From an uncultured Gammaproteobacteria bacterium (lineage in GTDB: Bacteria > Patescibacteriota > Microgenomatia > Levybacterales > GWA1-39-11), in NCBI GenBank assembly GCA_964472415.1, contig CAYYLC010000001.1, positions 239,194 to 303,193 of the forward strand: a DNA stretch of 64,000 nucleotides, given 5' to 3'. A program made the position numbers and the translations under genes. The notes under the pieces were generated by a model, which did not search any database, was not told the DNA's origin, and saw only the letters and a program-made list of their open reading frames with translations. Shown in pieces: positions 1,729 through 64,000 of the stretch. The number at the start of each line of letters is the position of its first letter. Positions within the stretch are counted from its first letter, which is position 1.

Positions 1729-1756
1729 ATAAGACTGTAAGGGAGAATGGGAGGGG

Positions 1757-3592
1757 TTATATTTTTCCTTGGGAGCGCATTCTTCGTGCTTCTGCTGCGT
1801 CAAGTATTAATTTTCTTATTCTGATATTTTGTGGCGTTATTTCTACGAGTTCGTCGTCTGCAATATATTCTAACGCTTCTTCAAGTCCCATTGTTTTGGG
1901 CGTTTTAAAGTATTCAGAAACTCCCTCACCTTTAGAACGCATATTTGTAAGGTGTTTGGTTTTGCAGACATTTACACTGATGTCATCATTTCGACTATTT
2001 TGTCCTACTACTTGCCCTTTGTAAACAGAAGTGCTGGGGCCAATAAACAAATTACCTCTGTCTTGGATATTTGTAAGTCCGTACATATTTGCCATGCCTG
2101 TCTCGTGTGCTACGAGCGATCCCTGTTCGCGCTCGTGTGTATAGCCACTATCTGGACCATATTCATGAAAAAGCGTATTGATGATTCCCAGGCCTTTTGT
2201 ATCCGTAACAAATTCGCCCCGATAGCCAAAGAGTCCTTTTGAAGATATGATAAAGTCAAGAGATGTAATGCCATTTTCAGCTCGCATGTCTTTTAGCTCT
2301 GCATGTCTTGTTCCCATTTTTTGTATTACAGATCCTGCGTATTCATCGGGCACCTCTATAAATACTTGTTCATATGGAGTCATTTTGCGTCCATCAATTT
2401 CTTTGTCAATTACTTGAGGACGTCCAACTTGAAATTCATATCCTTCTCGTCTCATTCTTTCGATTAGGATTGCTAAGTGTAGTTCTCCACGTCCAGACAC
2501 AATCCAACCTCCTCGCGAATCACTCTCTACGCGAAGTGCCATATCTGTCTCCGTTTCTTTGTAGAGCCGTTCTTCGATTTGTCGTGAGGTTTTAAATTCT
2601 CCCTCTTTTCCAGCAAATGGAGAATTATTTATCATGAATCGAGCGCGGATTGTGGGTTCTTCTATTTTCAGTAATGGGAGTGCTTCTGGAGAATTCGCGT
2701 CTGCGACAGTTTCTCCAATTACCGGATTTGTGATCCCCGCAATGGCAACAATATCCCCAGCTTGTGCTTCCGGTATCTCAGCCTTCCCAAGTCCTGCAAA
2801 CGTCATAAGAGAAGAGATCTTTGCCTTTTTAATTTCTCCTTCTCGGGTTATATGGGATACTTCTTGACCAGTTCTAATTTTTCCGTTATATATTCTTCCT
2901 GTTGCAATTCTTCCTTTATGTGTATCAGAAGAAAGAGTCGTGATGAGCATTTGTAGCGGTTTTTCTGAATCTCCAGTTGGAGGAGGGATTTCTTTTAGAA
3001 TTGTTTCAAATACTGGGGTAATATCTGTCATTTCATCTATTGATTCAGTGAGTCCAGCCTTTCCATTTTTTGCTGATGCATAAATAATAGGGAAGTCTGC
3101 AGTTTTATCATCTGCTCCGAGTTCTAGAAATAAATCAAGAGTTTTATCCAGCACATGGTTAATTCTTGCATCTGGTTTATCTATTTTATTTACAACAACA
3201 ATTATCTTGTGCTTCATCTCAAGTGCTTTTTTTAAAACAAATCTTGTTTGAGGCATTGGTCCCTCTTTCGCATCAACCAATAGTAAACAGCCATCGGCCA
3301 TTTTCAGGACACGCTCAACTTCTCCTCCAAAGTCTGCGTGGCCAGGAGTATCAATAATATTAATCTTGACCCCCTCTTCATTTGGTGAAGTAGGATTATT
3401 CCATATGACTGAAGCATTTTTGGAAAAAATTGTAATTCCTCGCTCACGCTCAAGCTCATTATTGTCCATTATCAATGTTTCCGCTGTGTCTTTGTGCATC
3501 TCAGTTTTTGACTGTGTGAGAAGTGCATCAACGAGCGTTGTCTTTCCATGGTCAACGTGAGCTATGATTGCGATATTCCGTATATTGTTCAT
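1757..3592 (-). CDS. typA: Translational GTPase TypA/BipA
   Basis: N-terminus IRNIAIIAHVDHGKTTLVDALL carries the G1 motif AHVDHGKTT and the DTPGHADF G3 motif; at 611 aa the length fits BipA. Confidence 0.93.
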   Translation of the reverse strand: MNNIRNIAIIAHVDHGKTTLVDALLTQSKTEMHKDTAETLIMDNNELERERGITIFSKNASVIWNNPTSPNEEGVKINIIDTPGHADFGGEVERVLKMADGCLLLVDAKEGPMPQTRFVLKKALEMKHKIIVVVNKIDKPDARINHVLDKTLDLFLELGADDKTADFPIIYASAKNGKAGLTESIDEMTDITPVFETILKEIPPPTGDSEKPLQMLITTLSSDTHKGRIATGRIYNGKIRTGQEVSHITREGEIKKAKISSLMTFAGLGKAEIPEAQAGDIVAIAGITNPVIGETVADANSPEALPLLKIEEPTIRARFMINNSPFAGKEGEFKTSRQIEERLYKETETDMALRVESDSRGGWIVSGRGELHLAILIERMRREGYEFQVGRPQVIDKEIDGRKMTPYEQVFIEVPDEYAGSVIQKMGTRHAELKDMRAENGITSLDFIISSKGLFGYRGEFVTDTKGLGIINTLFHEYGPDSGYTHEREQGSLVAHETGMANMYGLTNIQDRGNLFIGPSTSVYKGQVVGQNSRNDDISVNVCKTKHLTNMRSKGEGVSEYFKTPKTMGLEEALEYIADDELVEITPQNIRIRKLILDAAEARRMRSQGKI

Positions 3593-3665
3593 AAAAAAAA
3601 CCGCCTATCGTGCGGTCTATATTATTATAACAGAATCCTATAGAAAATGTAAAAAGAATTTGTGT

Positions 3666-3694
3666 TTGAACTTAAAGCATTACTTCACTATAAT
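3666..3694 (+). promoter_or_regulatory. Sigma70-like promoter for ileS (TTGAAC-17 nt-TATAAT), with the -10 ending about 8 nt before the ATG: leaderless geometry
   Basis: Read directly: ttgaac at 3666-3671, a 17-nt spacer, tataat at 3689-3694, and the ATG at 3703. No Shine-Dalgarno sequence lies in between. Confidence 0.45.
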
Positions 3695-3702
3695 ATCTTC
3701 AT

Positions 3703-6513: not shown

Positions 6514-7597
6514 TAGTCTATTGAGCTTTTTTGGGAGAATTGATTTACTGATATTAATTCCGGCATTATTTTTAGTACTGATCAGTCTTTCAACACTTCT
6601 CTCTATAAGTCCTGCATATTTTAGACAGCAAATAGTAGCTTTAGTGTTGGGGCTCGTTGGATTCTTGATTTTTACTCGTATTGATTTAAGCCTTTTATCT
6701 TACCTTTCAAAATTTCTTTATGGAGGTATGCTTTTTTTATTAGTGCTGGTTCTATTGTTTGGGGTAACGGTAAATGCGGCAAAAAGTTGGTTTGATATTT
6801 TTGGTATGAGTATTCAGGCCTCGGAGATTATCAAACCATTTTTTCTCATTGTTCTTGCGACGTTTTTGACTCAAAAAATCGGAAAGAGAATATATCGTTT
6901 TTTAGGAGCATTACTTATCACATTTCCAGTTTTTTTTCTTATCTATCAGCAGCCTGATTTGGGGACGGGGATTGTATATATTGCTGCTTCTTTAATGGTA
7001 ATATTTCTTGCCGGTTTCCCATTGCGATATATTTTACTTACTGTGGTAGGTACCAGTATCATAATTCCAATACTGTTCTTTTTTTTGCAGGATTATCAAA
7101 AGCAGCGAATCCTCACATTTTTTGATGTTACGAGTGATCCTACTGGTGCTTCATATAACGCTATCCAATCACTTATTTCTATCGGGAGTGGTGGTTTTTT
7201 CGGGAAAGGATTTGGGCAAGGGACACAGTCTTTGTTGCGATTTCTGCCTGAACAGCAGACAGATTTTATTTTCGCAACGATTTCTGAAGATTTAGGCTTT
7301 ATAGGCTCATTTATCGTACTGTGCTTATTTGGAATTTTGCTATATCGAATATATAAAGTAGCAATCTCAACGGAGAGTGCATATCAATATCTTGTATGCA
7401 TGGGAGTATTTGCGATATTCTTCTTTCAGATACTATTTAACGTTGGGATGAATCTAGGACTTATGCCGATTATTGGGATTACATTGCCATTTGTTTCATT
7501 AGGAGGAAGCTCATTATTAGCAAGTTTTATTGCGCTCGGAATGATTTCTGGAATTTCAAAAGACAATAAAAAGCATCAATCTATGGAAATAGCGTAA
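6503..7597 (+). CDS. ftsW: SEDS-family peptidoglycan glycosyltransferase (FtsW/RodA)
   Basis: Polytopic membrane protein of 364 aa with the SEDS hallmark regions GMSIQASEIIKPFF and LPEQQTDFIFATISEDLGFIG. Whether it is FtsW or RodA is ambiguous. Confidence 0.8.
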   Translation: MSNNSLLSFFGRIDLLILIPALFLVLISLSTLLSISPAYFRQQIVALVLGLVGFLIFTRIDLSLLSYLSKFLYGGMLFLLVLVLLFGVTVNAAKSWFDIFGMSIQASEIIKPFFLIVLATFLTQKIGKRIYRFLGALLITFPVFFLIYQQPDLGTGIVYIAASLMVIFLAGFPLRYILLTVVGTSIIIPILFFFLQDYQKQRILTFFDVTSDPTGASYNAIQSLISIGSGGFFGKGFGQGTQSLLRFLPEQQTDFIFATISEDLGFIGSFIVLCLFGILLYRIYKVAISTESAYQYLVCMGVFAIFFFQILFNVGMNLGLMPIIGITLPFVSLGGSSLLASFIALGMISGISKDNKKHQSMEIA

Positions 7598-9570: not shown

Positions 9571-9856
9571 ATCTGTATATTCTCTCGTTTCAGATGGTGT
9601 TTGTCAATAACGCATAGTAAAGCACAGGGTTATTTGATAGAATTGATTATAGCGTATAGATAGACATACTATGAATTAGTTTGATAGTTCTTAATAGTCA
9701 CTGATCTTAGGATTGAGTTAGCAGTTAATTGATTGGAGTGATAATATAGTATAAAAAGTGATTTGTGTTGATTTATCAATCTAAATTGAAATATCCAGTA
9801 ATTAAGTGGCGAGTATCTTACTATATCAAACAGTATAAAACAACCATTTTTAATTT

Positions 9857-10888
9857 ATGAAAAAATCTCCGAGAAAGAAGAAAATACTGTTTCTTGCAAG
9901 ATTGTTCTTTCCTCATATCGGCGGTGTTGAGAAGCACCTTTTCAAAGTATCGGAAAAACTTCAACAGCTTGATTACGAAGTTACGATCATTACGGAACAG
10001 TATGATAAGTCTCTCCCACTCCGAGAGGATCGATATGGACTTTCCATAATTCGGATACCTACTTCTTCAGGGGAAAGAATGAAAAAATTTCAGATCTGGA
10101 AATGGATGATAAGAAACAGAAGTTTTATTAGCAAATTCGATATTATCCACGTCCATGACGTATTTTACTGGTTATATCCATTACTTATAGGATTAGATAG
10201 GAAGAATATCTTTATGACATTCCATGGATATGAGGGTTATCCAATCACACTTCGTCAAAAATTGCATCGAAAAATTGCCGAAAAATTATCTCGGAGGAAT
10301 ATCTGTGTTGGAGATTTTATGAGGAAATGGTACGGGACAAATCCTGATATAGTGATATATGGTGCAGCAGAGGAGAATACTTCGGAAGCAAATAGAATAA
10401 AGAAGTATTCAGCATTATTTTTTGGGCGCCTGGATGATCAGACCGGTATTGAAGAGTATTATGCTGCTTTTCAGAGAATTAGAAAAAAATATAAGAATTT
10501 CGTATTTCAGGTGATAGGTGAGGGTAAATATAAGAAAAAGTTAGACGGAGTGCGGGTTAAGCCATTTGATAAAGAAGTGGATAAAAAAATTACTCAATTC
10601 CAGTTTGTATTTGTATCACGGTACCTTTCTATGCTTGAGGCTATGCTGAACAGGAGAGTCATTATTGCAGTATATGATAATCCAGTGAAGCGAGACTATC
10701 TCTACGATTCACCTTTTGCAAAGCATATTGAAATCTGTAAAAGCTCTGATGAAGTGTATCAGAAAGTAGATTTTTACATCAATAATCCCCAAGAAGAAAA
10801 GAAAAAAATAGAAGCTGCATATAGATGGGCAAAAAAGCAAACTTGGGAAAAGGTAGCACAAGACTATAGAAATTTATGGAGCGTATGA
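9857..10888 (+). CDS. Glycosyltransferase family 4 (GT-B, GT1-like)
   Basis: FPHIGGVEKH N-terminal motif and a C-terminal E-x7-E-like region; first gene of the glycan locus. Confidence 0.75.
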   Translation: MKKSPRKKKILFLARLFFPHIGGVEKHLFKVSEKLQQLDYEVTIITEQYDKSLPLREDRYGLSIIRIPTSSGERMKKFQIWKWMIRNRSFISKFDIIHVHDVFYWLYPLLIGLDRKNIFMTFHGYEGYPITLRQKLHRKIAEKLSRRNICVGDFMRKWYGTNPDIVIYGAAEENTSEANRIKKYSALFFGRLDDQTGIEEYYAAFQRIRKKYKNFVFQVIGEGKYKKKLDGVRVKPFDKEVDKKITQFQFVFVSRYLSMLEAMLNRRVIIAVYDNPVKRDYLYDSPFAKHIEICKSSDEVYQKVDFYINNPQEEKKKIEAAYRWAKKQTWEKVAQDYRNLWSV

Positions 10889-11829
10889 AAGTTGGATTTA
10901 TCGCAACAGTTCTTAATGAAGAGAAGACTATTGTACAGTTTCTGGATTCCTTACGAAACCAGACCCTTATCCCGGCAAAAGTCATAATAGTAGATGGAGG
11001 ATCGAAGGATAGAACACTCGATCTTATTAGATCTCATAATATACATACAAAAACCCAAGTCCAGGTTTTTCAAAAAAGAGGGAATATTTCTACTGGGAGA
11101 AACTTTGCTCTCAGAAAAATAGATACAGATATTATTGCAATATCAGACGCTGGGTGTGTTTTAGAGAGAAATTGGGTGAAAAATATTATTGAACCATTCC
11201 AGAAAAAAAATATTGAGATAGTTGCAGGGTTTTATAAGGGACATTTTGAGAATAACTTTCAGAAAAATTTAATTCCTTTTGTATTAGTAATGCCCGATAG
11301 GGTGCGCGATGATTTTCTTCCGGCAGCCCGTTCCATGGCAATACGAAAAAAAATTCTTAAAGATGTTGGGTATTTTTCAGAAAAGCTACCCTATTCAGAG
11401 GATTATGAATTTGCAAGACGGCTTGTGAATCACAACAAAAAAATATTTTTTGCAAAAGAAGCAATAGTTTCCTGGGCACCAAGGAGTAATTTACGGGATA
11501 CATTTCTGATGTTTTATAGATATGCGTATGGAGATGTGCTTGCTGGAACTATTCGGCCTAAAGTCATAGCTCTTTTCGTAAGATATTTTATTATATTTTG
11601 TTTGATTATTTGGGTTCTAACCAAATCTGTATTACTTTCAGGCGTTCTTGTTGCTGCATTTTTTATTTTTTATTCTTTATGGGCAATTTCAAAAAATTAT
11701 AAATATGTTAGAAATATATCTGCAGTTTTCTATTTGCCATTATTTCAATTCATTTCTGATATAGCAGTTATAAATGGTACAATTTTAGGAGGAATAAAGA
11801 ATTTATGGGCTACACAAGAGCAACGATAA
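10876..11829 (+). CDS. Glycosyltransferase family 2 with a C-terminal membrane segment
   Basis: VIIVDGGSKDRT and the DxD-containing region AISDAG; GT-A fold signature. Confidence 0.8.
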   Translation: MERMKVGFIATVLNEEKTIVQFLDSLRNQTLIPAKVIIVDGGSKDRTLDLIRSHNIHTKTQVQVFQKRGNISTGRNFALRKIDTDIIAISDAGCVLERNWVKNIIEPFQKKNIEIVAGFYKGHFENNFQKNLIPFVLVMPDRVRDDFLPAARSMAIRKKILKDVGYFSEKLPYSEDYEFARRLVNHNKKIFFAKEAIVSWAPRSNLRDTFLMFYRYAYGDVLAGTIRPKVIALFVRYFIIFCLIIWVLTKSVLLSGVLVAAFFIFYSLWAISKNYKYVRNISAVFYLPLFQFISDIAVINGTILGGIKNLWATQEQR

Positions 11830-13025
11830 AAGGCATCTCATGGATTGCCGGAATTCGAGGCATAACACGAATTATCTCAATAGCGCGGACTGCCATTCTC
11901 GCACGTATTCTTACTCCAAGTGACTTTGGGTTTTTTGCAATTGCGTCACTTGTTCTTACGCTTGTGGAACTTCTTACGGAAACTGGAATAAATGTTGTCT
12001 TAACTCAGAAGAAGGAGGAGATTAATAAATATATTGATACTGCTTGGGTAGTATCAATTCTTCGTGGAGTCTTGATAAGTATGGCCATTTTTATAGCTGC
12101 GCCTTTTATTGCCTCCTTTTTTAATGCAGCGGGAGCGAAGAATTTATTGCTTCTTATTAGCATCGTGCCATTAGTAAGAGGATTTATAAATCCGTCGGTT
12201 GTGAAATTCACAAAAGATTTGCAGTTTAATAAAGAATTTTTTTACCGGGTATCAATTTTTAGTATTGAGTACATGGTGTCTATTGTGTGGGCGATTTTTT
12301 CTCCGTCTGCAGAGAGCCTTGTGATGGGGCTTATTGCAGGTGCTATGATTGAAGTGTTTCTTTCATTTATTCTTGCAAGACCATTTCCGAAAATTTCATT
12401 TGAGAAGAAAAAGTTTTTCGAGATTATTCATGTAGGGAAATGGCTTACTTCTGCAGGTTTGTTGAATTTTGGGTTTGTGAATGGGGACGATATTGTAGTT
12501 GGGAGAGTGCTTGGTGCTACTTCACTGGGATTATACGATATTGCGTATAGATTTTCGATGCTTCCTATTACTGAGGTTTCAGATGTTATTGGGAAAGTGA
12601 CATTTCCTGTATATGTAAAAATTGCAGAAGACAAAAATCGATTATGGAAGGCGTTTCTTAAATCATTTTTTGTTATTGCTGGAGTTTCAATATGTATTGC
12701 AAGTGTTCTCATACTATTTCCTGAGCTCATTATTAAAGTGGCGCTTGGGGATCAGTGGGCAAGCGCTGCACCGATCTTACAGATTCTTGCAATTGTCGGG
12801 ATGTTTCGTGCCATAATTTTTTCCTTGATGACCCCACTTTATGCTTTGGGACTTCAGAAAAAAATGACAATTATTACAGCCGTTAGTTTTATTGGGATGA
12901 TTAGTGTGATTGTCCCCTTGGTATATTATTTCGGTGTTTTGGGAGCGGCATATGCATCTTTGTTTGGAACGATTATCACTCTGCCATATGTGGTGTATCT
13001 CGGAAAGACAATTTTTAAAGTGTAG
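11805..13025 (+). CDS. Polysaccharide/oligosaccharide flippase (MOP/Wzx family)
   Basis: 406 aa with about 12 predicted TM helices and a Wzx-like N-terminal region. Confidence 0.7.
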   Translation: MGYTRATIKGISWIAGIRGITRIISIARTAILARILTPSDFGFFAIASLVLTLVELLTETGINVVLTQKKEEINKYIDTAWVVSILRGVLISMAIFIAAPFIASFFNAAGAKNLLLLISIVPLVRGFINPSVVKFTKDLQFNKEFFYRVSIFSIEYMVSIVWAIFSPSAESLVMGLIAGAMIEVFLSFILARPFPKISFEKKKFFEIIHVGKWLTSAGLLNFGFVNGDDIVVGRVLGATSLGLYDIAYRFSMLPITEVSDVIGKVTFPVYVKIAEDKNRLWKAFLKSFFVIAGVSICIASVLILFPELIIKVALGDQWASAAPILQILAIVGMFRAIIFSLMTPLYALGLQKKMTIITAVSFIGMISVIVPLVYYFGVLGAAYASLFGTIITLPYVVYLGKTIFKV

Positions 13026-13044
13026 GTGTTAAGGGGTTCTATCT

Positions 13045-14439
13045 ATGAAAAAGTACTTTTCTATCCATCGTTTAGTTTTTTACTTTGCTCTGATTTTTTT
13101 TGTAATTTTTTATCTATATGGCATTTCTTCTAATATGGTTTTCTTTGGAGATCAGGCATGGTTTTATATTTCGGCGAGGGATTTAATCTTAGGTAGAGAA
13201 TTTCCATTGTTGGGTATTACATCTAGCCATACTTGGATTCATCAGGGGCCAGTGTGGACATATATGTTGGTTCCGGGATTTTTAATCTCCAATTTCCACC
13301 CTTTATCAGGAGTGTATTTATCAGTTGTTTTTGGAATTTTAAGTCTCATTCTTGTATATAAAATTGGGAAAGATTTTTTTTCGCAAAGGTTTGCCATAAT
13401 CTTTTTCCTTTTATATGCATTTTCTCCACTTGTAGTGTTTCACGTACGGCTTTCCTACCACACATCTCCTATCCCATTTGTTGTATTGGGATTGTTCTAT
13501 GCAGCAGGCAAGTGGGTGCAGGGAAATGTGATATATTTTCCCTTAACGCTTTTCGCATTAAGTCTTTTATATAATTTCGAATTGGCAACGGTTATATTCG
13601 TTCCCATAATTTTGTTTCTTCTTCTGTATGGGTTTTTTAAAAGAGAGAAGTTTGTGAGTGGGCTTAGGAGTAAAAAAATAATATTTTTTTCAATTCTTGC
13701 AGTTTTTATTCCTATGCTTCCTATTCTTATTCACGATGTGCAAAATGGCTTTCCTCAAACAGTGGTATTTGCTGGGTGGTTTGGGTATAAATTGTTGCAA
13801 TTTATTGGCATTTTAGAAAAAAATAGCGTTGATAATAGTTCTTTTCAGGAGGGAGTTATTTTTTTCTTTCAAAAATATAAAGAACTACTCTCTGTTCCTT
13901 ATCAATATATTAGTGTGACGGTTTTTCTTGCAAGTGTACTATTTTCGATATATAAAGTTTTTACAACAAAGAACTTTATTTCACCTCTTGGGATAATTCT
14001 TTCATGTACATGCTTAGGCTTACTAGCTTATTTTCTGTCTGGAGTCCCATCAGAGGCATATCTTGTCATGCTGTTTCCAGGGTTGATATTTTGTATTTCT
14101 CTTTTAATTTATGGCTTAAGGAGAAATATTATAATAGGTTTTGTTCTATTTATTTTAATTATTCTCAATGTATATTACATTATTTCTACAAATTATCTAA
14201 CAAAAGGGAAAGTGACAATTTCGAAAAAAATAGCTGTTACTGAAAAGATTTTTCAAAATACAAATGGAAAGAAAGTGGAATTGTTTTATAAAGGCCCTGG
14301 TCAAGAGTTTAAAAGTTCTGTGATGCCATATGAATATTTATTGTGGTGGAGAGCTGGGATAGAAAGCGATCCTGATGGAAAAAGGTGGATTATCAAAGAA
14401 TTGAGAGATACTGTTGTGGTAGAAGAGTTTTATCGGTAA
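13045..14439 (+). CDS. GT-C fold glycosyltransferase (ArnT/PMT-like, GT39/GT83-type)
   Basis: Polytopic membrane protein with an N-terminal loop FFGDQAWFYISARD that resembles the DE-x-RYA-x-AR motif of ArnT/PMT enzymes. Confidence 0.55.
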   Translation: MKKYFSIHRLVFYFALIFFVIFYLYGISSNMVFFGDQAWFYISARDLILGREFPLLGITSSHTWIHQGPVWTYMLVPGFLISNFHPLSGVYLSVVFGILSLILVYKIGKDFFSQRFAIIFFLLYAFSPLVVFHVRLSYHTSPIPFVVLGLFYAAGKWVQGNVIYFPLTLFALSLLYNFELATVIFVPIILFLLLYGFFKREKFVSGLRSKKIIFFSILAVFIPMLPILIHDVQNGFPQTVVFAGWFGYKLLQFIGILEKNSVDNSSFQEGVIFFFQKYKELLSVPYQYISVTVFLASVLFSIYKVFTTKNFISPLGIILSCTCLGLLAYFLSGVPSEAYLVMLFPGLIFCISLLIYGLRRNIIIGFVLFILIILNVYYIISTNYLTKGKVTISKKIAVTEKIFQNTNGKKVELFYKGPGQEFKSSVMPYEYLLWWRAGIESDPDGKRWIIKELRDTVVVEEFYR

Positions 14440-56283: not shown

Positions 56284-56943
56284 ATGGAAGAAATCAGTAA
56301 TACGCTTGTCAGTACGATAAACAGCAGTATGGAGGGTGTTATTGCATATGCGCCGCGATTTATTCTTGGTTTAATTTTTCTTATAATTGGGATAATCGTT
56401 GCTGCATTTGTACGGCAAGTTCTCAAAGAACTATTTCGGTTTTTCAAACTTGATGCGTATTTGACAAAATACGGAGTTCCAGAATCAAAAGATGGTTCGA
56501 AGTGGAGTGCAATTGTTGCAGAAATCGCACGTTGGTTTGTAATTATTGCGTTTCTTGTTCCGACAGCAGATTTGTGGGGATTGGAGCGGTTCGCATCGCT
56601 TCTGAACAATCTCTTGACTTATCTCCCAAACGTGTTTATTGCAGTATTGTTGCTTCTTGTAGGATTTGTGGTGGCACGATTGGTGTACGACTTAGTCCTT
56701 GCATCAGTTCGAGGAGTTTCTAAAGATTCTGCAAAAACTGTTGCGCTCGTTGCACGCTATGCAGTTCTCGTATTTGTGGCACTTGTTGTGCTTAATCAAC
56801 TCGGAATAGCGAGTGACTTAATACGCATATTGTTTGCAGGAATTGTTGCGATGCTTGCTATCGCTGGGGGCCTTGCATTTGGACTTGGTGGAAAAGACGC
56901 GGCACGAGATACGATAGAGCGACTCAGACGAAAAATGAAATAA
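56284..56943 (+). CDS. Small membrane protein of the conserved-TM-helix / MscS-related family
   Basis: Four hydrophobic helices with repeated ...(R/K)..........G.. helix motifs. Preceded by TTGACA-17-TAATAC and a GGGGGTGA Shine-Dalgarno sequence. Confidence 0.45.
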   Translation: MEEISNTLVSTINSSMEGVIAYAPRFILGLIFLIIGIIVAAFVRQVLKELFRFFKLDAYLTKYGVPESKDGSKWSAIVAEIARWFVIIAFLVPTADLWGLERFASLLNNLLTYLPNVFIAVLLLLVGFVVARLVYDLVLASVRGVSKDSAKTVALVARYAVLVFVALVVLNQLGIASDLIRILFAGIVAMLAIAGGLAFGLGGKDAARDTIERLRRKMK

Positions 56944-56950
56944 TTTTTCC

Positions 56951-56994
56951 AAGGAACACACTGAAGTCGTTTTTCGGTGTGTTTCCTTGTTTGT
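56951..56994 (+). terminator. Rho-independent terminator candidate after the 56284-56943 gene
   Basis: AAGGAACACAC ... GTGTGTTTCCTT stem (one bulge) followed by GTTTGT. Confidence 0.45.
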
Positions 56995-57034
56995 AAGTCA
57001 AAGTTTTTATATAATTGGCAATGTGTCACTGTAC

Positions 57035-57107
57035 GGCCCCATCGTCTAGTGGCCTAGGACACCGGGCTTTCATCCCGGCAACACGGGTTCGACTCCCGTT
57101 GGGGTCA
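57035..57107 (+). tRNA. tRNA-Glu (anticodon UUC)
   Basis: Acceptor GGCCCCA/TGGGGTC, anticodon stem CCGGG/CCCGG with loop CTTTCAT, T arm ACGGG-TTCGACT-CCCGT, discriminator A. Confidence 0.85.
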
Positions 57108-58587
57108 CATTTCGAGATAAGGAATCTTCAAACTCCCTGTTTAGCTTGAATGGAAGGGCTAAGTCGTGGTTCGAAACCTTCTCAAATTGATACTTTACCC
57201 CTCTAGGAAAAATCATTGTTTGTAATTTGATTTTGAAGAGAGGTGGAGCGTCAAACCATATCAAATTAACGGTTTGAATGAAGTTCTGAGCATATGCAAG
57301 ACAAACTTTAATTTCACCCTCATCAGTCTTTGTCTCATGTAAGCCTAACTCTGCAATAGCAATCTGATCTCTTATTTGAGAAAGCTCTTCATTTGATTCT
57401 TCGTCTGTTAAGATCTGTTTCTTGCTCATTTGTATTATTCGAGCCTTTTCAGCTTGTAATCTCTGTATTTCACTCTTGAGTCTAATAGTATCTCCTTCCA
57501 ACTCCTGAATTCTGTTACGATACACTCGAATAAACATTTCCTTAAATAATTCTATCGTGTCTTCGTTTGGCTTTACATGCCCAAGCAGGTTATAAAAATC
57601 CTCGTGTAAATCATTTCGCTTATATGTTTTACCTCTTAACTCGCATCCTTTTCTAACACAGTAATACTTTGGATATTTTTTAGTTCTCCCTTTACACCAT
57701 GCAGCAGTCATAGGTACCCCACATTCTTTGCATTGGATAAATCTTCTCATTGGAAAATCTTCATTTTCTGTATTTCTTTTCATTTTACCTATATTTGATT
57801 TTCGAAGTATGACTTCATGACACTTATAGAATGTGTGTTCATCAGTGAGAGGCGTGTGTATTCCTTTTGTCTCAACTCCGTACTTACTAATTACTCCCAT
57901 ATAAAACTTATCACGGAGTATTTTGTGGATTAGCTGAGGATGAATTTTCATTCCTTTCTTACTCTTAATTCCTCTTCTATTAAGTTCATCTGCTAAATTC
58001 TTATAAGTATAATGTCCAGTAGAGAACTTCTTAAACAACTCGGTTACTATTGGTCCTTTAATAGGATCTAGAGCCATGATTGCATGATCTGTTTCATCTT
58101 TTTTATTGATGTACCCGAACTTAGCTCCCCAAACCCATCTTCCTTTAAGTACCCATCCTTGCATAGCTTCTGTAACACGTGTAGATTTAATATCATTATC
58201 TAACTGTGCTACAGCTGCAAATAGTCCTTCTATTACTTTCCCCATACCAGTGTCGTCAATTGGTTCGGTAGCAGACCTAAGACTAATGTCATATTCAAGT
58301 AGTCTTGCTTTAATTGCGAAGTGATCCATTTGGTTCCTAGCTAATCGGTCAATTTTATAAACTAAACACACATTCACTTTGCCTTTATTGATTCGACAGT
58401 ACTCAATAAGTTCTTTTAGTTGAGTTCTTTTTGTGGTTTTGGCGGATTCACCTTCTTCTTTGAAGATCTTTACGATTTTCCACCCATTCTCTTGAGCATA
58501 TTTTTTACATGAGGCAATTTGTGCATCAAAGCTGATATTGCCTATCTGACTAGGATCTGATACTCGGATATAAAGAATAACATTCAT
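57070..58587 (-). CDS. Large serine recombinase (integrase): resolvase catalytic domain, recombinase domain and zinc ribbon
   Basis: YIRVSDPSQ (catalytic Ser), KIDRLARN, recombinase domain and C4 ribbon CKECG...YYCVRKGC. The last 12 codons are encoded by the complement of the tRNA-Glu 3' half (38-nt overlap). Confidence 0.85.
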   Translation of the reverse strand: MNVILYIRVSDPSQIGNISFDAQIASCKKYAQENGWKIVKIFKEEGESAKTTKRTQLKELIEYCRINKGKVNVCLVYKIDRLARNQMDHFAIKARLLEYDISLRSATEPIDDTGMGKVIEGLFAAVAQLDNDIKSTRVTEAMQGWVLKGRWVWGAKFGYINKKDETDHAIMALDPIKGPIVTELFKKFSTGHYTYKNLADELNRRGIKSKKGMKIHPQLIHKILRDKFYMGVISKYGVETKGIHTPLTDEHTFYKCHEVILRKSNIGKMKRNTENEDFPMRRFIQCKECGVPMTAAWCKGRTKKYPKYYCVRKGCELRGKTYKRNDLHEDFYNLLGHVKPNEDTIELFKEMFIRVYRNRIQELEGDTIRLKSEIQRLQAEKARIIQMSKKQILTDEESNEELSQIRDQIAIAELGLHETKTDEGEIKVCLAYAQNFIQTVNLIWFDAPPLFKIKLQTMIFPRGVKYQFEKVSNHDLALPFKLNREFEDSLSRNVTPTGVEPVLPG

Positions 58588-58633
58588 ATTATTTCAATTT
58601 TATTAATCTATATTTAGTATAGCTTTTTTGAGC

Positions 58634-59353
58634 CTATTTTTGTGAATTTTTCTTTAAGAAATCAATGATTTTTGTATTAAAAATTGCTCCTGGAACTCTC
58701 ACTGTCTTATCTTGTTCTATCTCACTGGCAAATTGAAATAATATGTGAGCTGGAACACCTTTTTTAATTGCTGCTAAGTATGTTGTCTGAAGTGATTTAT
58801 GATTATTAGGTTCTAGTCTTTTGAATACCTCAAAGGCTGCAAATGTATCATTATCTGTTGGTTCAAAAGTATTAGGATCTAGTTCTTTATGCTCTTTTTT
58901 GCGAGATGATATTTCTAGTTCGCTTTCATTATTCTGTATTTTATTTGATTTAATTAAATTAGATTGGGGTGACCACTGGTTGTCTTTTGGCGGTACATTG
59001 GCTGTACTTTGTCTGTCCTCGTATGCTGGAATTTGTGATTTGCGAAATCTATTCTTTCTAATTTGCTGATGATCAAGCCATGAAGGAAACTCTATATACC
59101 ATTCACCATTTCTTTCCCATCTAATTATCAGTTTTTGAGTTGTTATTTCATCAAGGAACTTTTCAATATCAGAGTGTTTATATTCAGTCATGGGAAAAAC
59201 TTTCCCTTTTATATAATCAAATTCTCCTCTAATCCTTCCTTCATCATCCGCATGTGCAATCATCCAAGTGAATAAAAGTCTAGCTTCAAGTGATAGTCGA
59301 TTTACCTGAAGTGAGGTTGATATTTTCCAATGCAACATTCTTGCTTTTGCCAT
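58634..59353 (-). CDS. Putative replication-initiation / replisome-organizer-like protein (phage/plasmid type)
   Basis: N-terminal RLSLEARLLFTWMIAHADDEGRIRG...LIIRWERNGEWYIEFPSWLDHQ resembles the winged-helix N-domain of phage replisome organizers / DnaD-like initiators. This is a weak, by-eye call. Confidence 0.3.
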   Translation of the reverse strand: MAKARMLHWKISTSLQVNRLSLEARLLFTWMIAHADDEGRIRGEFDYIKGKVFPMTEYKHSDIEKFLDEITTQKLIIRWERNGEWYIEFPSWLDHQQIRKNRFRKSQIPAYEDRQSTANVPPKDNQWSPQSNLIKSNKIQNNESELEISSRKKEHKELDPNTFEPTDNDTFAAFEVFKRLEPNNHKSLQTTYLAAIKKGVPAHILFQFASEIEQDKTVRVPGAIFNTKIIDFLKKNSQK

Positions 59354-59504
59354 TTCTATTTATTTTTAATTTCTATATATCTATCAATAATTAAGTTAGA
59401 CAATACATATAAGTGATCTATAATCTCCTGAATTTGTTTATCTGTATATTTGAGATTACTGTCTCCTATTATTTTTCGTGCTTCTTTAATTGTTATTAAC
59501 ATAG

Positions 59505-59747
59505 TTAGCTAAAAATCAAATCCTTTAATTCTGATAACTTTGTGTTAAGCTCTTTGGGATTTACTACTGCACGATCTAGCCAGTATTCATTAACTAGAGA
59601 TTCACATAATTTTGAATCTTCAAATAGAAAGATTGCTTCTTTGGGGTTAGTTTTATTGATTCCAGCAAACTGAACCTTCCTAGTAGTTTGTAGATATGCT
59701 GCGAGGATTAGGGATTTAGTTTTGTAATATCTATCTGCTGTATTCAT
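59505..59747 (-). CDS. Hypothetical small protein (80 aa) of the mobile element
   Basis: ORF only; compact spacing within the element operon. Confidence 0.3.
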   Translation of the reverse strand: MNTADRYYKTKSLILAAYLQTTRKVQFAGINKTNPKEAIFLFEDSKLCESLVNEYWLDRAVVNPKELNTKLSELKDLIFS

Positions 59748-59821
59748 ATTCTGTGCTCAATTTGATATGAGTACAGTTTATTTGAAGTAGATAATTATTA
59801 GTATGGTGGTTTATGTTGCTA

Positions 59822-60700
59822 TTAAACCTCAGGTGAAAAACGTTTTAGTAGCTTTTTATATTCTGACACTGCGTGATAGATGTAATTATCATCATCTATA
59901 TAGCAGTTATCGCATCTTTGAGTTCCATTGTGGTGAGTCAAGTATTCATGTAAATCTGGACGTTCATTCCATTTTTTTATAATTTTTTTATAGTTACCTT
60001 TTGTCTGTACACTCCAATACCACTCTCTGTCACGCTTAATGTTTCTGTGAGTATCTTTCTTTAGCTTGCTATAAATAGAAAGTTCACCTAAATGATTTTC
60101 ATTTTGCATGTTTAGCAAATCACTTACTGCTGCATAAATATCTTTTTTAGTAGTAAATGGCATAACTTCAATTCCAGTAATAACTTCTCGCTCTGTCAAG
60201 ATATCAGTAGGCTGAGAGGGTAGATATGGTATCTCTTCTGAAAATGCTCTTGCGGTTTTAAGCGATGATACTTTGTGTTCTAAGATCACGTTTAGAATTA
60301 CATATTCAAAAATTCTAGGATAGTGAAATTTCAACCTAAGTATTCTTAATTCCTCAAAAAAATTTTTCTCTATTTCATCTACTTTTGACTGAATTTTTTC
60401 AAACACTTCATATTCAGTGTTACTTTTTCTATTGCGAATGAAAGTGTTTGGATCAACCCCATTTAATGGATCGGACTCATCTTCAAGTCTGTAATACTCT
60501 TTCGGATTGTAACCCGCAAGTTTTATGAAATGATCAAATAAACTATCACGTACTCCTTCTACTTTTAATTCAAGAGGAGGAATTATTTTGTACTTATCTC
60601 TTATTCGTTTAACTGACTCTAGAAATAGTGGTTGATCTACCAAAAAAGCAACAAGAGCATAATTACGGCTATTCTCAATATCTATCTGGACTTGTTTCAT
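59822..60700 (-). CDS. Hypothetical protein (292 aa) of the mobile element
   Basis: ORF only; no motif recognised. Confidence 0.35.
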   Translation of the reverse strand: MKQVQIDIENSRNYALVAFLVDQPLFLESVKRIRDKYKIIPPLELKVEGVRDSLFDHFIKLAGYNPKEYYRLEDESDPLNGVDPNTFIRNRKSNTEYEVFEKIQSKVDEIEKNFFEELRILRLKFHYPRIFEYVILNVILEHKVSSLKTARAFSEEIPYLPSQPTDILTEREVITGIEVMPFTTKKDIYAAVSDLLNMQNENHLGELSIYSKLKKDTHRNIKRDREWYWSVQTKGNYKKIIKKWNERPDLHEYLTHHNGTQRCDNCYIDDDNYIYHAVSEYKKLLKRFSPEV

Positions 60701-60724
60701 GACTATATCAATATCTAGCTTGAA

Positions 60725-61090
60725 TTATATAAAATTCTTTACTGGAACAGATATTTTTGCGAATCTTCGTTGTGTTATTCCTGTTTCTCCTGACCTGATT
60801 CTTTGATTGACTTTCCTTCGTAGTTCTCTATATGTATCTTCATTGGCTGCTTGAATTGTGCTTTTATGCTTCTGTAGTGCAGTATGTAATCTTTTTGCAT
60901 CTGCCTTTGAGAGATATCTTTTCTTTTGAATCCATGCTCTGTGTGAGAGTTTCCAGTATCGATAGTAAAAGTAGGGACCGTGCAGGTCACCTTTCAGACA
61001 CTTACAGCCTCTCTTACCACATTTGACCATTTGTGAATGGATATTGCCAGGTGTCTTGATCACTGAATCAAGTATTTTTATGTCCTTCAT
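60725..61090 (-). CDS. Small basic Zn-ribbon protein (CGKRGCKC...HGPY); candidate DNA-binding / recombination-directionality-type factor
   Basis: C-x4-C-x-C followed by HGPYFYY and a Lys/Arg-rich C-terminal half; first gene of the element operon. Confidence 0.35.
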   Translation of the reverse strand: MKDIKILDSVIKTPGNIHSQMVKCGKRGCKCLKGDLHGPYFYYRYWKLSHRAWIQKKRYLSKADAKRLHTALQKHKSTIQAANEDTYRELRRKVNQRIRSGETGITQRRFAKISVPVKNFI

Positions 61091-61174
61091 ACTATGATTC
61101 TATCAAATCTTAGGACACAAAAAAGGCATTTTAGGGCTCTCCATGCAAGGTCAAATTAAATGGTCAAAGTATAG

Positions 61175-62501
61175 CTTCAAAAACTGAAATGTACTAAAAC
61201 TTTGGTCCTTGTAATACCAATACACCAACACAAAATAACAGGAAATACATGGGTTAATATGCAAGATTTTGTAATTTACCTTGTAATTAGCAAGGGTAAT
61301 CAATACATGAATCAAGATTATATGGATTACATCTCTTCAATCGATTTACAGTCTTTACTTAAAAGTACTTTGTGATGAGATATTCGGTAGGCATAATTTT
61401 GTAACTAGTGTTATATGGCAAAAAATTCATAGTACTAAGAACGATGCAAAATATCTTTCTGTTAATCATGATTACATACTTATTTATGCAAAGAATATAG
61501 ACAAAATCAAAATTCCATTGCTTCCTAGAACAGAAAAAATGAATGCAAGATACAAAAATCCAGATAACGATCCACGTGGACCTTGGCAATCTGGGGATCT
61601 TGTAGCTAATGAAGAAAGAACAAATGGAAGATTTGAAATTATTGGTCCAACAGGAAAATCATTTAATGTACCAGCTGGTAAACATTGGGTATATACAAAA
61701 TCTAAATTACAAGAAATGATCAATGATGACAGAATATGGTTCGGTAAAAATGGTGATTCTTTTCCAAGAAAAAAGAGGTTCTTAACAGAAGTTCAACAGG
61801 GAAAAAAAGCAGATACATGGTGGATCAGCGAAGAAGTAGGACATAATCAAGAAGGTAAAAGAGAAGTATTGAAATTTAATCCTGATGATGTATTTGCTAC
61901 TCCAAAACCTGAGAGATTACTACATCGAATTATAACTTTAGCTACAAATGAAGGAGATATAGTATTAGACAGCTTTGCAGGCTCTGGTACAACTGGAGCT
62001 GTTGCACATAAGATGAATAGAAAATGGATAATGGTAGAACTTGGTAATCATGCAGAAACACACATTATCCCACGTATGAAAAAAGTTGTTGAAGGCAAAG
62101 ATGGTGGTGGAATTTCTAAACTTGTGGACTGGCAAGGTGGCGGTGGATTCAAGTATTTTGAATTAGGTGAAAGCCTCTTTGTCAAAGATGGTGATCTCAG
62201 ACTTACTGTTATCAATCCCAAAATGTATAACGGTGCTCTCATCAGAGCTATATTGAAATTAGAAGGCTTCAAAGTTGTAAACCCTGATAATGGTTTGCAT
62301 GGTAAGTCTGGAACAACTGTAGCTCATGTCACAGAGCAGTATGTAAGCCAAGAATATATTGATACCCTACTCAATGAGATAGGAGATCAGGCAAAGTTTG
62401 TTGTTATATATGCAAAAACTATCTCAAGTAATGTAAAATTGCCTGATAATGTAGAGATAAAGAGAATACCAGATATTCTCCTAAAGAAATTTACCGTATG
62501 A
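61175..62501 (+). pseudogene. Type III restriction-modification Mod (N6-adenine methyltransferase, beta class): the N-terminal region is degenerate and frameshifted, only the C-terminal about 330 aa remain as an intact ORF
   Basis: Intact part: FATPKPERLLHRII...DSFAGSGTTGAVAH (motif I FxGxG) from a TTG-start ORF at 61518-62501. Upstream, frame 0 reads LCDEIFGRHNFVTSVIWQK...HDYILIYAK, which is Mod-like but is preceded by a stop at 61308. A different frame reads ...NTGN..DFVIY..YISSID ending in a stop at 61373. The expected DPPY is degenerated to PIHQ, and no start codon is found. Confidence 0.55.
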
Positions 62502-64000
62502 GTAATAACAAAATTTTAGAAAAAATTACAAAAGAGTTGGATCTAAGAAAACCACAAGCTCAATCTCTAACAAAGCTAGATGCACTGATGTCTACTTTTA
62601 AGATTGGTGATGATCCGAAAGACATCGAGGCTAAGTTGATCGGTAGTCTTCAATTTGATACTGAGTTTCCATCATTTACATTTTCCCTTGCGACAGGTGT
62701 CGGGAAAACTAGACTGATGGGTGCGATGATTGCATATCTGTACTACACAAAAGGATTAAAGGACTTCTTTATTTTGACTCCTGGCGAAACAATCTACACA
62801 AAAACTATTGAAAACTTTACCAGTGGCACTAAAAAATATGTCCTACAAGGTCTAACAGACTTTCCTATGTTTAATGTTGTCACTGGTGAGAATTACACAT
62901 ATTCTGACTTTGGGAATAAACTTTTTGATGCTGTTAATGTCTATATCTTCAATATCCAGAAAATCTTTAATGAACGAAAAGATGTAGAGTTCCGATTTCA
63001 TAAGTATCAAGAAACACTTGGTTCTAGCTTTGCAGAGTTATTACAGAAGAAAGATCTTGTTATTTTGATGGATGAGAGTCATAGATATCGAGGAGAAAAA
63101 TCACTTCGGGCAATTAACCACTTATCACCTGAATTAGGTCTAGAATTTACTGCAACTCCTACCAGTAATAATGTTGTCCATAACTACTCACTTTCAGATG
63201 CTATTAAAGACGCTAGGCAAGCCCTAGAATCGCTTGAAAGTGGCGGCAGTGCAGAGAATGGGTATATTAAGATTCCTGGCGTTGTAGCTCGATCTGACAA
63301 CTTTGCATACGAAGGAGATATTGACCGCATAAAGTTAGAAGATGGAATACATCTACACAGACAGAAGAAAGCACTAATTGAAGAGTATATAAAGAATAAT
63401 AAGCTGAAAATGATCCTCCCTGTCACTTTAATTACAACCAAATCGATCCAACATGCAAATGAAGTAAAAGAGATGGTAACTAGTGATGACTTTTTTGATG
63501 GCTACTACAAAAATAAAACACTTGTTGTCACAAGCGAAAGTGAGGTTGATTCAATCAATCAGTTATTGCATTTAGAAGAGGCTCCACCTATCAACAAAAA
63601 TGAGATTGTTATTCACGTTGATAAGCTCAAAGAAGGATGGGATGTTCGAAATGTCTTTACAATTATTCCTTTTAGAGCCTCGATTAGTAAAACTCTTATT
63701 GAACAGACGATTGGTCGAGGCTTACGACTACCTTTCGGACAATTAACAGGAATTGAGATGTTAGATTCTCTAGATATTATTTCACATGATAATTATTCTC
63801 GTGTACTCTCTGTTGCTCATGAAGTTGCAGAAGGCATTTTAGTTAAGGAAGCAAAAACACGAGAAGAAATGAAGGTGGTTGAAATTAAACCTACTGATGA
63901 TAAAAAGCTAAGGGTAAGACTTCCAGCTGTAGAAACCAAAGTATATTCCTCAAACAATCTTGAATTCTTCCCTATCGCTATGAGAATGGATGAATTGAAA
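62498..64000 (+). CDS. Type III restriction enzyme Res subunit (SF2 helicase-like), 3' partial; it runs off the window and is not in the supplied ORF track
   Basis: ATG at 62498 overlaps the mod stop (ATGA). Hand translation is open for 501 codons to the window end, with Walker A ATGVGKTRLM and the DEAH box ILMDESHRY. Confidence 0.75.
   Translation, partial: MSNNKILEKITKELDLRKPQAQSLTKLDALMSTFKIGDDPKDIEAKLIGSLQFDTEFPSFTFSLATGVGKTRLMGAMIAYLYYTKGLKDFFILTPGETIYTKTIENFTSGTKKYVLQGLTDFPMFNVVTGENYTYSDFGNKLFDAVNVYIFNIQKIFNERKDVEFRFHKYQETLGSSFAELLQKKDLVILMDESHRYRGEKSLRAINHLSPELGLEFTATPTSNNVVHNYSLSDAIKDARQALESLESGGSAENGYIKIPGVVARSDNFAYEGDIDRIKLEDGIHLHRQKKALIEEYIKNNKLKMILPVTLITTKSIQHANEVKEMVTSDDFFDGYYKNKTLVVTSESEVDSINQLLHLEEAPPINKNEIVIHVDKLKEGWDVRNVFTIIPFRASISKTLIEQTIGRGLRLPFGQLTGIEMLDSLDIISHDNYSRVLSVAHEVAEGILVKEAKTREEMKVVEIKPTDDKKLRVRLPAVETKVYSSNNLEFFPIAMRMDELK

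Follow-up and report, generated by a model that had tools for sequence, protein, structure and literature searches.

A Type III restriction-modification operon with a recently 5'-truncated mod gene at a mobile-element boundary in a Levybacteria-like genome

At the right end of the window, the 64,000-nt stretch of DNA analysed here, lies what is most likely an ordinary Type III restriction-modification (R-M) pair of a Levybacteria-like (CPR) genome, recently beheaded at a mobile-element boundary and inactivated. We propose that the locus represents a Type III R-M operon, mod then res with translational overlap, which underwent a recent illegitimate deletion or replacement at its boundary with a serine-recombinase element integrated at tRNA-Glu. 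Such an event would have removed the mod promoter, any small gene upstream and mod codons 1 to ~124, among them those for the DPPY catalytic motif and for the dimerisation helices at the N-terminus; what survives would be the C-terminal three-quarters of mod, lacking a promoter and a start, next to a res of 772 codons that was left untouched.

The mod remnant and its breakpoint

The mod remnant is an open frame on the forward strand (61311-62501) that corresponds to Mod residues ~125-516 and shares 74-83% identity with Type III Mod proteins of ~517 aa. This frame, located upstream of res, encodes VLDSFAGSGTTG and terminates at TGA 62499-62501. It matches PADLOC MTase_III (PDLC03636, E=5.5e-108) over profile positions 117-543 of 575 and Pfam PF01555 (E=2.9e-32) over positions 56-215 of 221 only, whereas the intact Mod of the related locus L002 covers positions 1-215, including the 1-55 that the remnant is without. 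Retained are the TRD, the C-terminal domain and the AdoMet-binding motif I (DSFAGSGTTG, of the form FxGxG), the latter in an N6_N4 methyltransferase domain of the beta class whose TRD is central. Two features of a Type III Mod are absent, namely the N-terminal domain (residues 1 to ~124) and the catalytic motif IV (DPPY), which occupies residues ~84-87 in the Mod of intact relatives. Public annotation starts the product at TTG 61518 (327 aa) or at ATG 61539 (320 aa).

The motifs CDEIFGRHNF, VIWQK and HDYILIYAK lie 5' of the listed ORF start TTG 61518, as an earlier sequence-only reading had noticed, but the frame switch that it placed between them does not exist: CDEIFG...HDYILIYAK and DSFAGSGTTG share a single frame, open from 61311. 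Both stops to which it pointed are present. The in-frame TGA at 61308-61310 shuts the mod frame on its upstream side, while the stop at 61373 belongs to an unrelated frame (ORF 61202-61375) and does not interrupt mod.

Mod homology sets in abruptly. Matches in tblastn searches with the full-length relatives P0001, P0003, P0004 and P0005 begin at residue 125-129, equivalent to position 61320, and DNA alignments to relatives place the breakpoint in a scrambled forward-strand junction patch of ~40 nt (61311-61352). Within it, TATGGATTAC (61321-61330) still agrees with the relatives (IWIT), while 61331-61352 encodes SLQSIYS in place of IDDDE(S/G)H, with a net change of +3 nt; from ~61353 onward the homology is uninterrupted. 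The only four deviations of the remnant at conserved columns all fall at 61335-61349, and none occurs at the 86 conserved columns downstream of 61350.

The AT-rich spacer on the other side (61091-61310), which presumably serves as upstream region to the divergently oriented DUF6788 gene, shows no Mod similarity. A maximum-sensitivity search of all six frames of 60650-61420 with a profile HMM built on the N-terminus of Mod reached a best score of 1.8 bits, tblastn with the N-termini of 35 full-length relatives gave no match upstream of 61320, and DNA comparison of 59700-61400 with the relatives' loci revealed no similarity except mod itself. Rfam detected a tRNA alone in 56900-64000 and nothing in the spacer. 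Neither a promoter nor a ribosome-binding site can be made out for the mod remnant; a scan of 60600-62700 for promoters and terminators was uninformative, with promoter-like sites fewer than in shuffles and no terminators. The spacer also holds a spurious 57-aa ORF (61202-61375), from which the string 'PIHQ..ITGN' originates.

These results bear on the possibility that the whole of mod persists with its 5' part frameshifted or substituted, DPPYNTGN having turned into PIHQ..ITGN. The ATCGAT at 61340-61345, read in another frame, may be left over from the I-D codons in IDDDE, and ITGN stands near the place expected for NTGN, though ~10 codons too close. However, neither the HMM nor tblastn matches anything upstream of 61320 in any frame, of the 124 missing codons 61091-61320 has space for no more than ~76, and decay that erased all upstream similarity is incompatible with the absence of deviations at the 86 columns directly downstream. 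The text in question reads IPIHQHKITGN, in a frame where the N-terminal HMM finds nothing, and the resemblance to DPPYNTGN is one of chance. In-place decay is thus largely refuted already, and we hold it to be very improbable. Since Mod residues 1-124, including DPPY, are unmatched upstream in any frame, mod is truncated at its 5' end, and the breakpoint is sharp. The earlier description of a 5'-degraded pseudogene is supported by the absence of these residues, while the frameshifts suggested with it are not seen, the breakpoint being sharp and the remnant free of decay beyond the junction. The gene is neither frameshifted nor decayed in place; its first 124 codons are absent, having been replaced at the breakpoint.

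A reversible switch, with the 5' part of mod and its promoter residing elsewhere and rejoined through recombinase inversion, or with mod subject to repeat-slippage phase variation, is likewise very unlikely. Some serine recombinases are invertases, and a gene for a serine recombinase is found at a distance of 2.7 kb. Phase variation is also a classic trait of Type III mod genes (PMC3874151). Against such a switch, searches with 35 relatives for the Mod N-terminal piece on both strands of the window plus 8.5 kb (72.5 kb) returned only chance matches (E of at least 0.003), inverted repeats flanking the junction are at chance level only, and a single orientation is found in all four assemblies that contain the junction. 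The recombinase moreover has the make-up of a large integrase (Resolvase, Recombinase and zinc ribbon domains) and adjoins a tRNA gene. Simple-sequence repeats are absent from mod and from the region before it; TRF, applied in search of phase-variation repeats, reported only a weak array inside res (62504-62533; 10 nt, 3 copies, 65% match). With neither simple repeats nor an N-terminal piece in 72.5 kb, the truncation is therefore not phase variation, and the idea of a locus turned phase-off by an indel is not supported either, as 370 nt of mod coding sequence are missing.

The res gene, the age of the junction and the functional state

Directly downstream of mod, res begins at ATG 62498 on the forward strand; the first 501 of its 772 codons lie in the window (62498-64000) and the gene is complete on the overlapping public contig L001 (772 aa, to position 64816). 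The frame that opens at ATG 62498 and is still open at the window end, with its Walker A motif (ATGVGKTRLM) and DEAH box (LMDESHRY), had been recognised from the sequence and is confirmed, the families being assigned by Pfam and PADLOC: ResIII (E=4.4e-21) and PF04851 (E=1.2e-20) for the helicase, PADLOC REase_III (E=3.3e-88), and PF19778 (residues 646-734, E=6.4e-7) for the C-terminal PD-(D/E)xK endonuclease domain. It is indeed missing from the ORF list, solely because the listing omits ORFs that run off the window. The res start overlaps the stop of the DSFAGSGTTG frame as ATGA (62498-62501), again as first described, and L002, L005, L041 and L052 have a mod-then-res arrangement like that of the window. 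The SF2 motifs ATGVGKT, MDESH, FTATP and QTIGRGLR occupy columns that are at least 95% conserved among 106 relatives, and the PDF...EVK nuclease motif, which sits beyond the window on L001, is conserved as well. Res shows no deviation at 197 columns conserved in the 106 relatives (median of intact relatives, 1) and no premature stop past the window. The expectation of an intact res is thereby borne out, with every helicase and nuclease motif intact.

The junction is identical in L001, L006 and L007 (ENA ERZ27247346, ENA ERZ27247376 and JGI 3300015214), three contigs of limited independence that may stem from one community or study. Four assemblies (the NCBI MAG contig, two ENA k141 contigs and a JGI contig) have identical flanks over several kb on each side. 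Between the window and L001, L006 and L007 there are 11-12 SNPs, which cluster at 62471-62843 and are synonymous between the haplotypes in 11 of 12 cases; over 62471-62576 the window is identical to L041, a locus with an intact mod. One could suppose that the assembly fused two metagenome populations into a chimera at the junction (~61310-61350) and that the true mod is intact, as the SNP cluster and its partial identity to L041 testify to related R-M alleles, which make a mixed consensus conceivable for the window. We give such an assembly artefact very little credence: four assemblies from different pipelines agree exactly on the junction and on several kb of flanks, and the SNP tract is 1.1 kb distant from it.

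The event that truncated mod is recent. Neutral divergence since then would be below ~0.5%, a bound derived from zero hits in 849 nt under the rough assumption that ~72% of substitutions alter an amino acid. The flawless state of the remnant and of res would also fit continued selection instead of recency. The synonymous tract, being identical to the functional allele L041, reflects recombination and not selection on the window copy.

Type III systems are characterised by ATP-dependent cleavage at unmethylated sites that are inversely oriented and bound by Mod, and by hemimethylation of the site. Mod recognises the target site and directs Res, and its expression raises the Res level (PMC3874151); the role of the Mod N-terminal domain is treated in PMC4490356. 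Because Mod confers DNA recognition and stabilises Res, and its N-terminus is lost, the system is probably dead for both methylation and restriction, in agreement with the sequence-only reading. Loss of mod would be tolerated because Res depends on Mod. Conversely, translation from an internal start at ATG 61539 could yield a Mod fragment of 320 aa, coupled to that of res, and one may ask whether this fragment (TRD, C-terminal half and C-terminal domain) recruits the intact Res in a host protected by another methylase or by a lack of sites. The remnant and res are without fault at conserved positions and the haplotype SNPs are synonymous in 11 of 12 cases, although the synonymous tract, as noted, reflects recombination. 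Furthermore, without motifs IV-VIII and the dimerisation helices, methyltransferase folding and dimer formation are doubtful, the fragment has no evident promoter or ribosome-binding site, and self-destruction would be expected from restriction without cognate methylation. We thus regard a remnant in use as extremely unlikely. Very doubtful, too, are the notion that the remnant and Res constitute, via ATG 61539, a methylation-independent recognition-nuclease pair, and the related one that an incoming element disabled a resident R-M system in an inter-element conflict at tRNA-Glu.

The adjacent element and the mobility of the mod-res family

The mobile element at whose boundary we place the truncation has a backbone with all genes on the reverse strand (57070-61090; Pfam Resolvase, Recombinase, DUF5659 and DUF6788). 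It comprises a large serine recombinase gene (57070-58587), a 239-aa gene (58634-59353), a 48-aa gene (59356-59502), a DUF5659 gene (59505-59747), a 292-aa gene (59822-60700) and a DUF6788 gene (60725-61090). The recombinase (~500 aa) has the three domains of large serine recombinases, Resolvase (PF00239, E=9e-31), Recombinase (PF07508, E=8.8e-11) and zinc ribbon (PF13408, a weak match with E=0.006). Its gene overlaps, in antisense, the 3' part of tRNA-Glu(ttc) (57035-57108, forward strand; ARAGORN and Rfam), which the left end of the element abuts and which is its integration site. No repeat or empty site defining the right end was found, and neither att sites nor tRNA-Glu/tRNA-Lys fragment repeats were located as element ends in L001 and L002; hence the sequence of events, and the position of the R-M genes within or beyond the adjacent element, are what we infer.

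The sole relatives of the backbone, from the recombinase to the 292-aa gene, are L008 and L009, which share with the window the gene order 292aa-DUF5659-~50aa-recombinase. A metagenome scan with the 292-aa protein found no relatives, a viral-contig scan with the recombinase gave no match, and a literature search on serine-recombinase/tRNA elements in Patescibacteria found no directly relevant work among the papers covered. On the short contig L009, what comes after the 292-aa homologue is an MgsA_C gene fragment and not an R-M. The R-M genes of the window may therefore be a remnant of cargo from an element other than the adjacent backbone.

Relatives carry intact mod-res pairs beside tRNA-seated serine-recombinase/DUF5659 elements. 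L002 has a tRNA-Lys and recombinase..DUF5659 followed by mod (517 aa) and res (772 aa), and also carries a Dsr1-like gene; L005 has DUF5659 beside mod (520 aa) and res (770 aa). In L052, at the same MscS/tRNA-Lys/tRNA-Glu site as in the window, a different recombinase element (recombinase..DUF5659) is seated with intact mod (521 aa) and res (771 aa). Of the 57 loci with 3 kb or more of upstream sequence, 10 have a recombinase and/or DUF5659 module, every recombinase match being divergent from mod. These associations point to the window R-M as mobile-element cargo. The earlier suggestion that it is cargo of the adjacent module thus stands for the mobile-element link and is qualified for the carrier, given the L008/L009 backbone and the MgsA_C gene of L009. 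Between the window and L052, Res is 78% identical while the flanking MscS-like gene is only 46% identical, which indicates horizontal transfer, and window and L041 DNA are 89-100% identical outside the TRD versus 42-66% inside it. The mod-res family moves horizontally in CPR bacteria as well as in other phyla and, judging from these loci, travels in CPR bacteria with tRNA-targeting serine-recombinase/DUF5659 elements, its TRDs being swapped between alleles. The route to the window locus might then have begun with an older recombinase element carrying intact mod-res at tRNA-Glu, as in L052; a second element with an L008/L009-type backbone would have landed at the same tRNA, and a deletion would have joined its distal end to mod codon ~125.

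Known systems and significance

The locus has the gene order of EcoP15I and EcoP1I (PDB 4ZCF), mod then res. As in these prototypes, the Mod is a beta-class N6-adenine enzyme with the TRD between motif IV-VIII and motif X/I-III (intact P0001 against 4ZCF_A, E=6.8e-28), and Res combines an SF2 helicase with a PD-(D/E)xK nuclease at the C-terminus (against 4ZCF_C, E=7.6e-6), although sequence similarity to EcoP15I Res is weak. Unlike both prototypes, the window Mod is without residues 1 to ~124, that is, the N-terminal domain and DPPY, and the intact family itself is shorter (Mod ~517 versus 644 aa, Res 772 versus 970 aa). The nearest solved relative of the intact family Mod is 6K0W ('Adenine specific DNA methyltransferase (Mod)'; P0001, E=3.1e-49), with which the DPPYNTGN, ISIDDNE and CDEIFG motifs of P0001 align, whereas the window keeps only IW.. 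and CDEIFG onward, with the IDD.E motif scrambled.

Phasevarions with an inactivated res likewise leave one Type III partner intact, and share conserved ends with swapped TRDs (here L041 versus the window). Their polarity is the opposite, mod being kept while res decays (PMC3874151), as also in L003, where mod is kept and res decayed; the window instead combines a destroyed mod with a preserved res, repeat tracts are absent and the loss is irreversible. In common with tRNA genomic islands, an integrase gene adjoins the 3' end of a tRNA, defence genes are carried as cargo (Type III R-M here, the Dsr1-like gene in L002), and, as in serial accretion or deletion at tRNA genes, different elements occupy the same tRNA-Glu site in related genomes. 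Unlike in the usual islands, the integrase is a large serine recombinase and not a tyrosine integrase, and flanking direct repeats of tRNA fragments were not found.

Public records and the cluster name label the 327/320-aa product a normal site-specific DNA methyltransferase. As it is without the catalytic motif, it should be flagged as a pseudogene, and the adjoining res should not be counted as active defence. The locus offers a clean, datable snapshot of a Type III system dying, in which the tolerance of mod loss contrasts with Type II systems. R-M cargo and TRD swapping in this family may be of modest use for studies of mobile elements and defence in reduced genomes.

The 5′ boundary of mod

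The methylase gene mod of the Type III restriction-modification (R-M) locus lies in a frame that is open from 61311, ends at the TGA at 62499–62501 and encodes ...IWITSLQSIYSLYLKVLCDEIFGRHNFVTSVIWQK...HDYILIYAK...VLDSFAGSGTTG...KKFTV. The ORF list starts it at TTG 61518 (327 aa), because ATG, GTG and TTG are absent farther upstream in this frame. The remnant matches N6_N4_Mtase in Pfam (E=2.9e-32, profile positions 56–215 of 221) and MTase_III in PADLOC (E=5.5e-108, positions 117–543 of 575); the intact Mod of the related locus L002 covers Pfam positions 1–215. Hundreds of Mod relatives of ~516–520 aa were found in the protein database, the closest of which (P0001, P0003, P0004, P0005 and P0007) display 74–83% identity. 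An exact copy of the 327-aa product is recorded on the overlapping ENA contig L001. A 94%-identical fragment of the mod remnant comes from a Candidatus Levybacteria-type CPR MAG, and the window probably derives from a bacterium of this type.

The motifs, the stops at 61308 and 61373 and the ATG/stop overlap picked out by a sequence-only reading are real, and its families were confirmed by Pfam and PADLOC. The same reading described Mod as frameshifted and decayed, with a frame switch around 61340–61375. By tblastn, the match to four close relatives begins at their residue 125–129 (IWIT), which is position 61320; this segment, with CDEIFG...HDYILIYAK, and the remainder of mod share one frame, so that no switch is needed. 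The TGA at 61308–61310 is in the mod frame, while the TGA at 61373–61375 ends a 57-aa ORF (61202–61375) in a different frame. Upstream of 61320, tblastn at E<=100 returned only noise as Mod similarity; the Mod N-terminus from 35 relatives had no match on either strand of the window and its 8.5 kb extension, and a Mod N-terminal profile HMM, run with all filters off, did not exceed 1.8 bits in any of the frames across 60650–61420. The frame with IPIHQHKITGN gave zero alignment to this HMM, which speaks against PIHQ being a decayed DPPY. The room from the end of the neighbouring gene (61090) to 61320 amounts to ~76 codons, versus 124 missing. In DNA alignment with the relatives, a preserved TATGGATTAC (61321–61330) is followed by a scrambled patch of ~22 nt (61331–61352; SLQSIYS in place of IDDDE(S/G)H, net +3 nt) and by continuous mod homology from ~61353. 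The junction is a breakpoint with a messy join rather than gradual decay, and the frameshift was rejected: mod is truncated at its 5′ side.

An intact res in a probably disabled system

The restriction gene res starts at ATG 62498, overlapping the mod stop as ATGA, and its frame is open to the window end, within which it carries ATGVGKTRLM and LMDESHRY (ResIII, Pfam E=4.4e-21; REase_III, PADLOC E=3.3e-88). It is missing from the ORF track only because the frame runs off the window. The contig L001 shares sequence with the window from 51518 onward and reaches 8.5 kb past its end; there res is complete, with 772 codons to window-equivalent 64816 and a C-terminus displaying a RE_endonuc domain and a PDF...EVK motif. 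Among 106 full-length relatives, 197 columns reach at least 95% conservation, and Res deviates at 0 of them (relatives' median 1). The earlier view of res as intact was thus borne out, with no early stop beyond the window. For the mod remnant, set against 113 Mod relatives, 90 columns reach this level; it deviates at four of them, all in the junction patch at 61335–61349. If both genes are assumed to have evolved neutrally since the event, zero deviations in ~849 conserved nt correspond, as a rough estimate, to less than ~0.5% divergence. The truncation is recent. On the 3′ side of res, L001 (13317–15462; window-equivalent 64834–66979) holds a 446-aa Schlafen/AlbA_2 gene and an overlapping 277-aa gene, the latter with neither a family match nor a PADLOC hit; both may be further defence-island cargo.

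In Type III enzymes, site recognition is the task of Mod, which also guides Res, and the amount of Res goes up when Mod is expressed (PMC3874151). Since the mod remnant is without promoter, start codon, N-terminal domain and DPPY, methylation by the locus would be lost, and restriction almost certainly with it; loss of mod is tolerated because restriction goes with Mod. Phase variation had been proposed as an alternative, the locus being in an off state; this was not supported, as there are no repeat tracts and no relocated mod 5′ segment in the window and its 8.5 kb extension, and a single orientation is seen in all assemblies. Domain content and gene order make this a Type III R-M locus, in which motif IV and the N-terminal domain, defining features of Mod, are missing, and which we regard as a disabled member of its kind. 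The opposite decay is seen in the related locus L003 (5947–9829), where mod is intact (493 aa) and res has fallen apart into several short ORFs, among them one of 78 aa with a weak ResIII match and one of 167 aa with RE_endonuc. For phasevarions, an intact mod with a decayed res is described as the commoner pattern (PMC3874151).

The recombinase element and the loci of relatives

The region left of mod contains tRNA-Glu (57035–57108) and, on the minus strand, a large serine recombinase (505 aa, 57070–58587) and five small genes that extend to 61090, DUF5659 and DUF6788 among them. The 292-aa gene at 59822–60700 has only two relatives among 5.8 billion clustered proteins (56% and 36% identity), in L008 and L009, both in recombinase elements and each directly beside DUF5659; in L009 the homologue is followed by a MgsA_C gene fragment, not by R-M. 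The final 39 nt of the window's recombinase run antisense into tRNA-Glu. Such an overlap of the recombinase ORF 3′ end with the tRNA 3′ part was observed in four independent loci: the window, L002 (tRNA-Lys-ctt 1474–1547, recombinase 1485–3233), L052 (tRNA-Glu 5500–5574, recombinase 5485–7302) and L056 (tRNA-Lys-ttt 448–520, recombinase 461–2143). These serine-recombinase elements target tRNA genes, an unusual choice of site for serine integrases, and the recombinase C-terminus would be encoded across the putative attachment junction. As a possible origin, the 57.1–61.1 kb backbone would be a small, self-contained element and the mod-res remnant leftover cargo of another element at the same tRNA-Glu, and a deletion would have fused the two; no att repeats in support of this fusion were found.

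In related loci an intact mod-res pair lies next to similar modules. L002 comprises tRNA-Lys, recombinase, HTH_36, DUF5659, two small genes, mod (517 aa), res (772 aa) and a Dsr1-like gene; L005 a 50-aa gene, DUF5659, mod (520 aa) and res (770 aa); and L052 (4541–13461) an MscS-like gene, tRNA-Lys (−), tRNA-Glu (+), recombinase, HTH_36, DUF5659, mod (521 aa) and res (771 aa). The chromosomal site of L052 (MscS-like gene, tRNA-Lys, tRNA-Glu) is that of the window in a distant relative, occupied with a different type of serine recombinase, and this tRNA-Glu is a recurrent landing site. Between window and L052, Res is 78% identical and the flanking MscS-like gene 46%; the R-M system is therefore horizontally mobile. 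Fifty-seven loci extend at least 3 kb upstream of mod; 10 of them have a recombinase and/or DUF5659 module within 7 kb, and the recombinase is divergent from mod in every locus with a recombinase match.

Further genes were observed in these loci. After res, L002 encodes a 1129-aa protein (9728–13117; PADLOC Dsr1, E=7.5e-59) that covers profile positions 295–1177 only and is without the first ~290; this Dsr1-like gene is another defence-type cargo on its element. A 59-aa HTH_17/MerR-type gene in L004 (339–518) has relatives in 10 other loci (L059, L045, L056, L067, L013, L073, L048, L014, L058 and L052) and may encode a controller or excisionase-like protein. In seven loci (L004, L014, L045, L048, L056, L058 and L059) it precedes an intact mod by no more than 600 nt. 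The window lacks this gene, which presumably disappeared together with the mod 5′ end. L106 carries two complete identical tRNA-Gly(ccc) copies 9.5 kb apart (689–762 and 10211–10283), next to which is a 115-nt inverted repeat of 96% identity; a recombinase and a distant mod lie between the copies, which may be element ends.

Alleles and significance

The truncation junction is reproducible: its recombinase-to-mod architecture recurs in three other assemblies, L001 (ERZ27247346), L006 (ERZ27247376) and L007 (JGI 3300015214), which are mutually identical and differ from the window at only 11–12 positions, at 62471–62576 and 62843; 11 are silent, and the remaining one causes I6V in Res. Across 62471–62576 the window is identical to L041 (106/106), and this clustering at the mod/res junction stems from gene conversion over a short tract or else from a mixed consensus. 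In L041 an intact mod (517 aa) is followed by res (1163–4647 versus window 61362–64432), with a tyrosine-integrase-like gene 5′ of mod, in a place equivalent to the window's, and no serine recombinase there. DNA identity is 89–100% from ~61870 to ~64370 and 42–66% in the TRD-coding part (61568–61867), which marks a TRD swap between alleles and demonstrates recombination within the family; the swap would imply a specificity other than the window's.

The locus amounts to an ordinary R-M operon, inactivated recently where it borders a mobile element and mechanistically nothing new, and an annotation correction follows from its disabled mod. The more interesting lead lies to its side, in tRNA-targeting serine-recombinase elements with defence cargo in CPR genomes.
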